64,000 nucleotides of DNA from NCBI RefSeq assembly GCF_003334305.1, contig NZ_QOWS01000001.1; one strand, 5' to 3'. Of this stretch, positions 33,122 to 63,370 are shown piece by piece. Made by a program: the position numbers and the translations under genes. Below the pieces are notes generated by a model, which worked only from the letters and a program-made list of their open reading frames with translations, was not told where the DNA came from and made no database searches. How positions within the stretch are numbered: the first letter of the stretch is position 1; each line of letters starts with the position of its first letter. Source of the DNA: Escherichia coli. GTDB taxonomy: Bacteria; Pseudomonadota; Gammaproteobacteria; Enterobacterales; Enterobacteriaceae.

Positions 33122-33148
33122 AAAAAATAAGCCCGTGTAAGGGAGATT
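33122..33148. repeat. attR core (27 bp), coincident with the 3' end of cyaR
   Basis: Exact direct repeat of 2280..2306. Confidence 0.85.
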
Positions 33149-33208
33149 ACACAGGCTAAGGAGGTGGTTCCTGGTACAGCTAGCATTTTATGGGTTATGT
33201 TTTTCAGC
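33122..33208 (-). ncRNA. cyaR: CyaR (RyeE) Hfq-dependent sRNA, 87 nt
   Basis: The reverse complement reads GCTGAAAAACATAACCCATAAAATGCTAGCTGTACCAGGAACCACCTCCTTAGCCTGTGTAATCTCCCTTACACGGGCTTATTTTTT, which matches the CyaR sequence as I recall it, including the terminator hairpin and U-tail; lies between ogr and yegQ. Confidence 0.8.
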
Positions 33209-33292
33209 GAAACGGATGATAACCTTAATAAATGCAGCTGTATGTGATCGGTTTCTAAGAATTTTCCATCCGGGAAAAATAATCGAAATTAA

Positions 33293-61128: not shown

Positions 61129-62712
61129 TCACACCTCGTACTCCATCTCGCCATCCTTACGCAGCGGTATAATCTGCACCTTCTGCACGCGATGGCTTTC
61201 TACCTGCAACGTTTTAAGCAAATAATCCCCCACCTGAACTTCTTCGCCAGGTTTTGGAATACGCTGCAAATACTCCATCAACAGCCCGGCAATGGTGTGA
61301 TATTCACGTTTTTCATCCAGCGGCAGCGGCACATATTGCACCAGATCTTCCAGCGGCATATGACCATTCGCCGTCCAGGAACCGTCCGCATTCTTCTGAA
61401 TATCATGGCGGGCGTCGATCTCTTCCACTTCGTTCGGTAAGTTACCGGCAATGGTTTCAGTGACGTCACTTAATGTCACAATCCCTTCCACCGAGCCAAA
61501 CTCATCCACCACAAAAGCAAAGTGTGTGCGGGCATTACGGAACTGCTCCAGGGCAGGTAACAACGGCAAGGTTTCCGGGAACACCAGTGGCTGGCGAATC
61601 AACACCCGCAGGTTGAGCGGTTCGCCACGCAGTGACTGTTGTAGCAGGTCGATAACGTGAACAACACCGAGCAAATCTTCTGCGTCATCACCGTCGGTAA
61701 CCACCAGCCGCGTATGCTGATTTCGCTCCAGCAACTGGCGGATTTCTTCTTCCGGCGCGTTGAGATCGATATGCTCAATATCGTGGCGCGACGTCATAAT
61801 GCTGCTGACGGTACGCTGGTTAAGATTAAGTACCCGCTCAATCATCCGCCGTTCCTGCGGATTAAAGATCTGCTGGTTACCATGATCCACCAGCATGGAC
61901 GCGGTTTCGGCGTCCAGTTCCGCATCTTCTTTTTGCCCGCTAAGCAGGCGCATTACCGCTTCGGTAGTCCGCTGGCGCAGCGTCTGGTTAGCGGAAAGAA
62001 AACGTCGCCGGTTAAAGATAGCCAACTGATTGAGCGCCTCGATCATCACCGAGAAGCCAATGGCGGCGTACAGGTAGCCTTTCGGAATGACGAAGCCGAA
62101 ACCTTCTGCCACCAGGCTAAAGCCAATCATCAACAGGAAGCTTAAGCAGAGAATAACGATGGTCGGGTGACTGTTAACAAATTGCGTTAACGGCTTGCTG
62201 GCCATCAGCATTAGGCTGATAGCGATAACGACGGCGGCCATCATGACCAGTAAATGGTCGACCATCCCGACGGCGGTAATCACCGAGTCGAGTGAGAAGA
62301 TGGCGTCCAGCACCACAATTTGCGTCACCACGCCCCAGAACTTCGCACCTTTGCGTTGTGTGGGATTATTGCTGTCTTTCCCTTCCAGCCGTTCGTTCAG
62401 CTCCATCGTGGCTTTGAACAACAGGAAGAAACCACCAAACAGCATGATTAAGTCGCGGGCGCTAAAGGTAAACGAGCGGAAGCTGAACAGCGGTTGAGTC
62501 AGGGTGACCAGCCAGGAGATTGACGCCAGCAGTAACAGGCGCATTAACATCGCCAGCAGCAGCCCGGTAACCCGTGCGCGGTCGCGCTGCTTCGGCGGTA
62601 GTTTTTCGGCGAGGATGGCAATAAAGACCAGGTTATCAATGCCGAGGACCAGTTCGATCACAATCAGCGTGATTAACCCGGCCCAGATAGACGGATCGGC
62701 AATCCATTCCAT
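61129..62712 (-). CDS. yegH: TerC-family/CBS-domain inner membrane protein YegH (527 aa)
   Basis: N-terminal polytopic TerC-like domain, C-terminal CBS pair plus CorC/transporter-associated domain; 527 aa from the MEWIADPS start. Confidence 0.85.
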
Positions 62713-63180
62713 AGTAAGTACAAAACCTATTCGTTGTATGACAAATGTCACAATTCGATCATGGATAAATCGGGGCAAAAATGCAATGTTGCAGCACTAT
62801 TTATCTCATATTATTTGAGGGTAATAACCTCACATTATCCCTGAATTAAAAGGGGTAATAATAAAACATTATTTAAGAAATATCGCATGTGGAGACGCAA
62901 TATTAAATATTGTCAACCTAAAGAAACTCCTAAAAACCATATTGAATGACACTTAATATAATTCTTAAAAATAGCCAATTGCCGAATTGTTACCTTGCCT
63001 GCTATTCCGTTAGCTGTAACACTTCCTCCTGCATTATTGGAGAGCCAATATTCAATTACCATAATGTCACCTTATATTCGGAAGTTAATTTCCGTAATAA
63101 CCCTTTCTCATCAACGATTGTATGCAGAGAGGGTTTGAAAAATTAAGCTAAATCAGTGTATTGGTAGCTAAAAAGCCAGG

Positions 63181-63192
63181 GGCGGTAGCGTG
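63181..63192 (+). promoter_or_regulatory. ops (operon polarity suppressor) element GGCGGTAGCGTG in the wza leader (RfaH recruitment / JUMPstart)
   Basis: Exact GGCGGTAG ops core about 180 nt upstream of the wza start codon, in the long untranslated leader. Confidence 0.65.
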
Positions 63193-63370
63193 TCTGGATG
63201 CCTGAAAGACCAGTCTGAATTATTCTGTCAATAGCCTGCGGATGAAATCAATTTTTTTAGGACTGATGCCAGTTAAATTTTTATTCAATTAACTGCAAGG
63301 TAAATGTGCATGGCGACATTGCTATTAATAGTGCACAGGATAATTACTCTGCCAAAGTGATAAATAAACA

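Follow-up and report, generated by a model that had tools for sequence, protein, structure and literature searches.

The region described here lies at the end of the window, by which we mean the whole stretch of 64,000 nucleotides of E. coli DNA, and consists of the intergenic interval between yegH and wza, which are divergently oriented. The original prediction had drawn this interval as about 590 bp long, starting at 62779, an edge which derives from the choice of the longest ORF for yegH, with a TTG start at 62778. The RefSeq annotation of strain 503025, where the region is 100% identical, and that of K-12 place instead the yegH ATG at 62712 and the start of wza at 63371, so that the interval is to be redrawn as 62713-63370, that is 658 bp, the length also found in K-12 and CFT073; by tblastn, homology to the YegH proteins of other genera sets in with the first residue of the shorter protein. 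The AT-rich character attributed to the interval is evident, GC being 0.29-0.40 over 62700-63400 versus 0.50-0.58 in the flanking genes. Equally borne out is the location of the start of the cps cluster at the window edge: RefSeq has wza at 63371, and in CFT073 the full cluster lies downstream, wza-wzb-wzc-wcaA...wcaM following contiguously, directly after an identical leader, a long operon devoted to envelope components. The features identified within the interval and at its borders are collected in Table 1.

Table 1. Features of the yegH-wza interval. Conserved blocks are stretches with at least 85% column identity to the window in the 14-sequence alignment.
Feature	Position	Strand	Remarks
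yegH start codon ATG	62710..62712	-	Actual left boundary of the interval; RefSeq (100% identical region; K-12)
Conserved block, yegH side	62755-62789
Candidate RcsAB box TAAGAAATATCGCA	62874..62887	+	Best core match; pattern T..AG.....TC..A
Promoter-upstream block ATTGTCAA...ACTCCTAAAAA	62909..62936	+	85-88% column identity, 14 sequences, vs 61% for the interval
Conserved blocks	62909-62916 and 62926-62936
Conserved block CTTAATATAATTCTTAAAAAT	62952..62972	+	88-94% identity across genera; fixed spacing to neighbouring blocks
Conserved block	62991-63021
Candidate sigma-70 promoter	62995..63023	+	-35 TTGCCT 62995-63000, 17-nt spacer, extended -10 TGTAACACT 63015-63023
JUMPstart element, 39 nt	63154..63192	+	Rfam RF01707, 57.3 bits vs gathering score 35
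Conserved block, JUMPstart	63156-63196
ops element GGCGGTAGCGTG	63181..63192	+	Non-template strand for wza; expected RNA polymerase pause T11 (63191)
Conserved leader block AATTATTCTGTCAATAG	63218..63234	+	88% identity across genera; wza leaders only
T-run and AGGA (63259-63262), then putative mini-ORF	63252..63292	+	ATG 63266 to TAA 63292, MPVKFLFN
Conserved block	63252-63279
Conserved block	63290-63297
Near-invariant block before the wza start	63333..63370	+	No Shine-Dalgarno; 94% mean column identity
Conserved block	63333-63373
wza, 5' part	63371..64000	+	First colanic-acid cluster gene; window ends within wza; RefSeq

In the RefSeq sequence of CFT073 (locus L003, 23192-24776) wza is marked as frameshifted and wzb contains an internal stop. 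Since a resequencing table lists single-base insertions at both genes relative to the reference (PMC9765446), these may be errors of the reference sequence.

The ops motif of the original prediction was found, as GGCGGTAGCGTG, at the predicted place and on the plus strand, where it constitutes the 3' end of a complete JUMPstart element. The match to the Rfam model is full-length (model positions 1-38 of 38), with E-values of 4e-12 in a local search and 1.6e-10 over the whole window, which makes the site a member of the JUMPstart family and bears out its description as the RfaH-recruiting ops part of a canonical JUMPstart leader. Since ops and wza share the same strand, the motif lies on the non-template strand, and the distance between the 5' G of ops and the A of the wza ATG is 190 nt. 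In vitro, bases C3-G8 of ops (C3, G4, G5, T6, A7, G8) are needed for RfaH recruitment and G12 for the pause at U11 (PMC5995543); matched to the ops definition GGCGGTAGnnTG, the window's 12-mer carries all recruitment bases as well as the pause base.

Over all of the window, JUMPstart is one of five Rfam matches that exceed the gathering score, and a scan of the interval identified no further family at E-values up to 1. Elsewhere in the window, three tandem Sib antitoxin RNAs lie on the minus strand at 47329-48134 (RF00113, 138-150 bits), and the small RNA CyaR (RyeE) at 33125-33210, also on the minus strand (RF00112, 100.7 bits). Between yegL and mdtA, three Ibs toxins are annotated in strain 503025 and two in CFT073; K-12 has two as well.

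Of 5426 complete genomes of E. coli, 4829 carry the region, with rare exceptions as a single chromosomal copy, and the query is covered to at least 80% in 4819 of them. In the K-12 wza leader, the comparison suggested along with the original prediction, the sequence from JUMPstart to the ATG is identical, and the 11 substitutions found over the 658 bp all fall upstream of 63148. The same is true of the 13 substitutions in the CFT073 interval, where 63151-63373 is identical to the window; in the two strains together, changes are confined to 62823-63147. Relative to CFT073, 13 differences are found in the upstream 438 nt, 21 in 630 positions of wza and 41 in 1584 of yegH, and none within 63151-63370. 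Such an absence of differences over 220 nt is about 6-7 below expectation and, since the flanks are evenly diverged, points to purifying selection on the stretch from JUMPstart to the ATG.

Comparison with a divergent E. coli strain, SCPM-O-B-8794 (L117 hereafter), shows a sharper transition: divergence is 10-19% up to 63149, while a single difference (63159, within JUMPstart) is found in the remaining 220 nt to the wza ATG. Divergence thus falls to about zero exactly at JUMPstart, at about 63149-63159, a pattern suggestive of a recombination junction lying at the element or next to it. Selection was accordingly discarded as the sole cause of the missing downstream divergence in this strain: since third positions differ by 20% in yegH and by 2.9% in wza, a mosaic boundary would contribute as well. 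The CFT073 comparison, evenly diverged on both sides, still supports constraint.

The search was extended to representative genomes by using the pattern CCANGGGCGGTAGCGTG, which is matched by at least 120 stretches. Among the matches listed, 13 other loci feature a divergent yegH, JUMPstart and then wza directly: the one of L117 and twelve from other genera, namely Citrobacter, Enterobacter, Lelliottia, Superficieibacter, Siccibacter, Pseudocitrobacter, Mangrovibacter, Kluyvera and relatives, this layout being found in at least ten other enterobacterial genera. In the 13 listed loci the wza ATG lies 193-204 nt past the start of the pattern, versus 195 in the window. As the loci were picked by a pattern containing ops, conservation of ops itself among them is circular, and information is to be drawn only from where ops lies and from the blocks on either side. 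Alignment of the 14 sequences, window included, with column identity measured against the window, gave a mean of 61% over the whole interval, from which the blocks listed in Table 1 emerge.

Upstream of JUMPstart, the block at 62991-63021 may be read as a sigma-70 promoter, with a start near 63030. Both hexamer regions are conserved among the aligned genera, the spacer being constant in length and variable in sequence, and the candidate promoter ends at 63023, upstream of ops. A consensus promoter scan of the interval did not report this site; the only one it proposed, at 63038-63065, was rejected, as it represents fewer sites than found in shuffled sequences and falls in a stretch which is not conserved. 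A TATAAT hexamer at 62957-62962 could serve as an alternative -10, with a start near 62969. From either candidate start, ops would be located 150-210 nt into the transcript. No site was found by a terminator scan, and a full-text literature search yielded no coordinates for a mapped wza start or RcsAB site. The primary paper on the wza transcription start is said to be that of Stout, from 1996.

Candidate activator sites were looked for by using the RcsAB-box consensus, which is reportedly TaAGaatatTCctA according to Wehland and Bernhard (2000). The pattern on which the candidate box of Table 1 is based corresponds to what we take to be the most conserved core positions of this consensus. No more than about half of the genera have retained the box, and with 7 matches versus 4.4 expected the window shows no enrichment of the core pattern. 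A second box-like sequence, TAATATAATTCTTA (62954-62967), features a T instead of a G at position 4 and is conserved in all genera; it is contained, together with the TATAAT hexamer, in the block at 62952-62972, which would be either an activator site or a -10 element.

The conserved promoter blocks are overlain by a 49-aa ORF on the minus strand (62913-63062), to which automatic annotation has given the name "hypothetical protein" (WP_162829205.1) in the RefSeq records of many E. coli genomes, though not in that of K-12. It was rejected as a gene, and is most likely a spurious call, because it is broken by stops in L117 and in every locus compared from other genera. Two more conserved elements lie towards yegH, a palindrome, TGACAAATGTCA, at 62739-62750, and a block, GATCATGGATAAA...AAAATGCAATG, at 62757-62788; on the minus strand the latter resembles a candidate yegH promoter (-35 TTGCAT, 17-nt spacer, -10 CATGAT).

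RfaH loads only on RNA polymerase transcribing through ops. In a CFT073 delta-hns delta-stpA background, Hustmyer et al. 2022 (PMC9765446) classify the wza ops as "NT strand, UTR, RfaH signal: Y"; they report an RfaH ChIP signal at the CFT073 site, wza being preceded by a sigma-70 peak, and their ops coordinate is that of the JUMPstart match in the CFT073 locus. Given the requirement for a transcribing polymerase, these signals, obtained on a sequence identical to that of the window, imply that the site is transcribed and, together with the phylogenetic footprint, make it probable that ops lies within the wza leader. The outcome named as fatal to the original prediction, namely that the motif matches by chance and falls outside the transcribed leader, is hence contradicted by the RfaH signal and the upstream sigma-70 peak of CFT073. 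In wild-type CFT073 H-NS is found over the wza promoter region and the locus is silent in rich medium, with neither RNA polymerase nor RfaH signal, so that the authors regard it as a cryptic RfaH target (PMC9765446). Secondary statements in two further publications have colanic-acid expression use JUMPstart and RfaH (PMC9976346; PMC3101779).

We are therefore confident that the site is the known ops/JUMPstart of the leader of the colanic-acid (wza-wcaM, "cps") operon, real, conserved and ordinary. The colanic-acid cluster has its regulatory start here, where the window ends, and the identity of the site as part of a leader explains why a long AT-rich interval is non-coding. The original prediction had labelled it expected biology: this holds, as the system is a known one, with the qualification that the basis is published work and not mapping in this strain. 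Nothing new on RfaH or JUMPstart is to be learned from the site.

The sequence of events would start with the firing of a promoter silenced by H-NS and activated by Rcs, which would precede ops by roughly 150-210 nt, presumably in the present strain as well. RNA polymerase would enter the leader and pause at U11 of ops (63191), where RfaH would recognise the non-template GGCGGTAGCGTG, which the transcription bubble exposes in the form of a small hairpin. RfaH would then stay with the polymerase, excluding NusG, and would lower pausing, Rho-dependent termination and H-NS roadblocks over the roughly 20 kb of the wza-wcaM operon. It probably also helps to recruit the ribosome to wza, a gene devoid of a Shine-Dalgarno sequence: the best anti-Shine-Dalgarno duplex reaches -1.6 kcal/mol, versus an average of -2.6 for random 20-mers of the window. 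This fits the reported RfaH targets, since RfaH-assisted ribosome recruitment has been described at targets lacking a Shine-Dalgarno sequence (PMC5995543).

Three other explanations deserve to be weighed. The 12-mer might be a chance match, functionless and outside any transcript. The ops consensus, GGCGGTAGNNTG, is matched once on the two strands of the 64 kb, 0.10 matches being expected, and at least one match is produced by 10 of 100 shuffles of the window, a number rising to 27 when one mismatch is allowed; the 12-mer by itself is thus only mildly improbable, and 34 ops matches located within CFT073 genes bind no RfaH (PMC9765446). Its inclusion in a full 39-nt JUMPstart at the E-value given above, its invariance in E. 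coli (K-12, CFT073) while neighbouring sequence varies, its conserved distance to wza in many genera and its occupancy by RfaH in CFT073 make coincidence, however, extremely improbable. A genuine ops might, on the other hand, be a marginal relic, with colanic-acid output set at the promoter by RcsAB activation and H-NS silencing. The silence of the wild-type CFT073 locus in rich medium, and its being called cryptic, would agree with such a view, but JUMPstart and the following 178 nt are strongly constrained, both in E. coli and across genera, which argues for continued use of ops, and colanic acid is called RfaH-regulated in the secondary literature cited above. We consider this possibility unlikely.

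JUMPstart might also act chiefly as an RNA element, by way of a hairpin or a larger fold of the leader, rather than through recognition of non-template DNA. The 5-bp stem of the Rfam model does fit the window (UUGGU...GCCAG, 63161-63179), the RfaH mechanism assigns no role to the 5' half of JUMPstart, and RNAalifold, run on the 14 leaders, pairs the near-invariant block preceding the ATG with both the ops transcript and the 63218-63234 block, the long-range helices proposed being ops with 63346-63353 and 63221-63230 with 63335-63344. The consensus energy is -12.3 kcal/mol and no pair is compensatory, the covariation score not exceeding that of shuffled alignments; a 10-bp helix with G-U pairs allowed is moreover expected about once by chance, by our own estimate, in 180 AU-rich nucleotides. 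The two helices were consequently rejected as indications of a structured leader RNA. Folding of 63154-63400 gave a minimum free energy no better than that of shuffled sequences (z = +0.88), and biochemical work in the literature assigns recognition to the non-template DNA (PMC5995543), all of which makes a primary role of the RNA very unlikely.

With ops and JUMPstart taken as the conventional RfaH-loading site, the only part of the locus which could lead somewhere is the constrained leader further downstream, which is more conserved than the ops mechanism alone would require. The blocks following ops are found only in wza leaders and not at other JUMPstart loci. They include a putative mini-ORF of 8 codons, located 74 nt past ops, the ATG of which is kept in 13 of the 14 aligned leaders, Siccibacter having ATT. 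A frame of 7-8 codons is maintained in 12 leaders, 11 of which end it at TAA; conservation of the nucleotides is limited to the first three codons, and later ones vary freely. Pairing of the mini-ORF with the anti-Shine-Dalgarno sequence is weak (-3.9 kcal/mol), and its translation is possible. Among the aligned genera, identity over the 41 nt at 63333-63373, which include the wza ATG, amounts to 94%.

The stretch of 178 nt that separates ops from the ATG might be more than a spacer, and form a conserved module specific to colanic-acid leaders, a tentative suggestion which we hold to be rather doubtful. Its parts could be the T-run with AGGA, the 8-codon mini-ORF and the 38 nt, lacking a Shine-Dalgarno sequence, which precede the ATG. 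Were this true, the RfaH-bound polymerase would gain a first ribosome at the mini-ORF, the leader would be shielded from Rho and translation would be handed over to wza; alternatively, the blocks would bind a regulator. No description of such a module was retrieved by a literature search.

Among known systems, the closest is the orthologous wza leader of K-12 and CFT073, which shares with the window the 658-bp interval and the 190-nt distance from ops to wza, and differs only by the 11 and 13 upstream substitutions described above. In the ams/cps-type clusters of Erwinia, Pantoea, Serratia, Brenneria and Tatumella, JUMPstart similarly adjoins a divergent yegH homologue and shares its own strand with a homologue of wza located further downstream. 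In these clusters, however, wza is found 0.5-2.3 kb past ops, whereas in the window it directly follows the leader, and the blocks at 63218-63370 are absent.

The same non-template 12-nt ops is found in the leaders of the O-antigen (galF-wzx/rfb), waaQ (rfaQ), hlyC and kps operons, which, like that of wza, are long and encode surface or secreted components; in the CFT073 galF-wzx region, a 60-bit JUMPstart carries an ops 12-mer identical to that of the window. These leaders lack the blocks which follow ops in the wza leader, and in the kps and wzx ones the first gene is closer to ops, at 40-71 nt. Their operons are also transcribed in wild-type cells, while transcription of wza depends on activation by Rcs or on H-NS being lost (PMC9765446). 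More distant parallels are the NusG paralogues and the N and Q proteins of phage lambda, which, like RfaH, are loaded close to the promoter and travel with the polymerase through a long operon; RfaH reads a hairpin of non-template DNA at a pause (PMC5995543), unlike the factors acting through RNA nut or promoter-bound qut sites.
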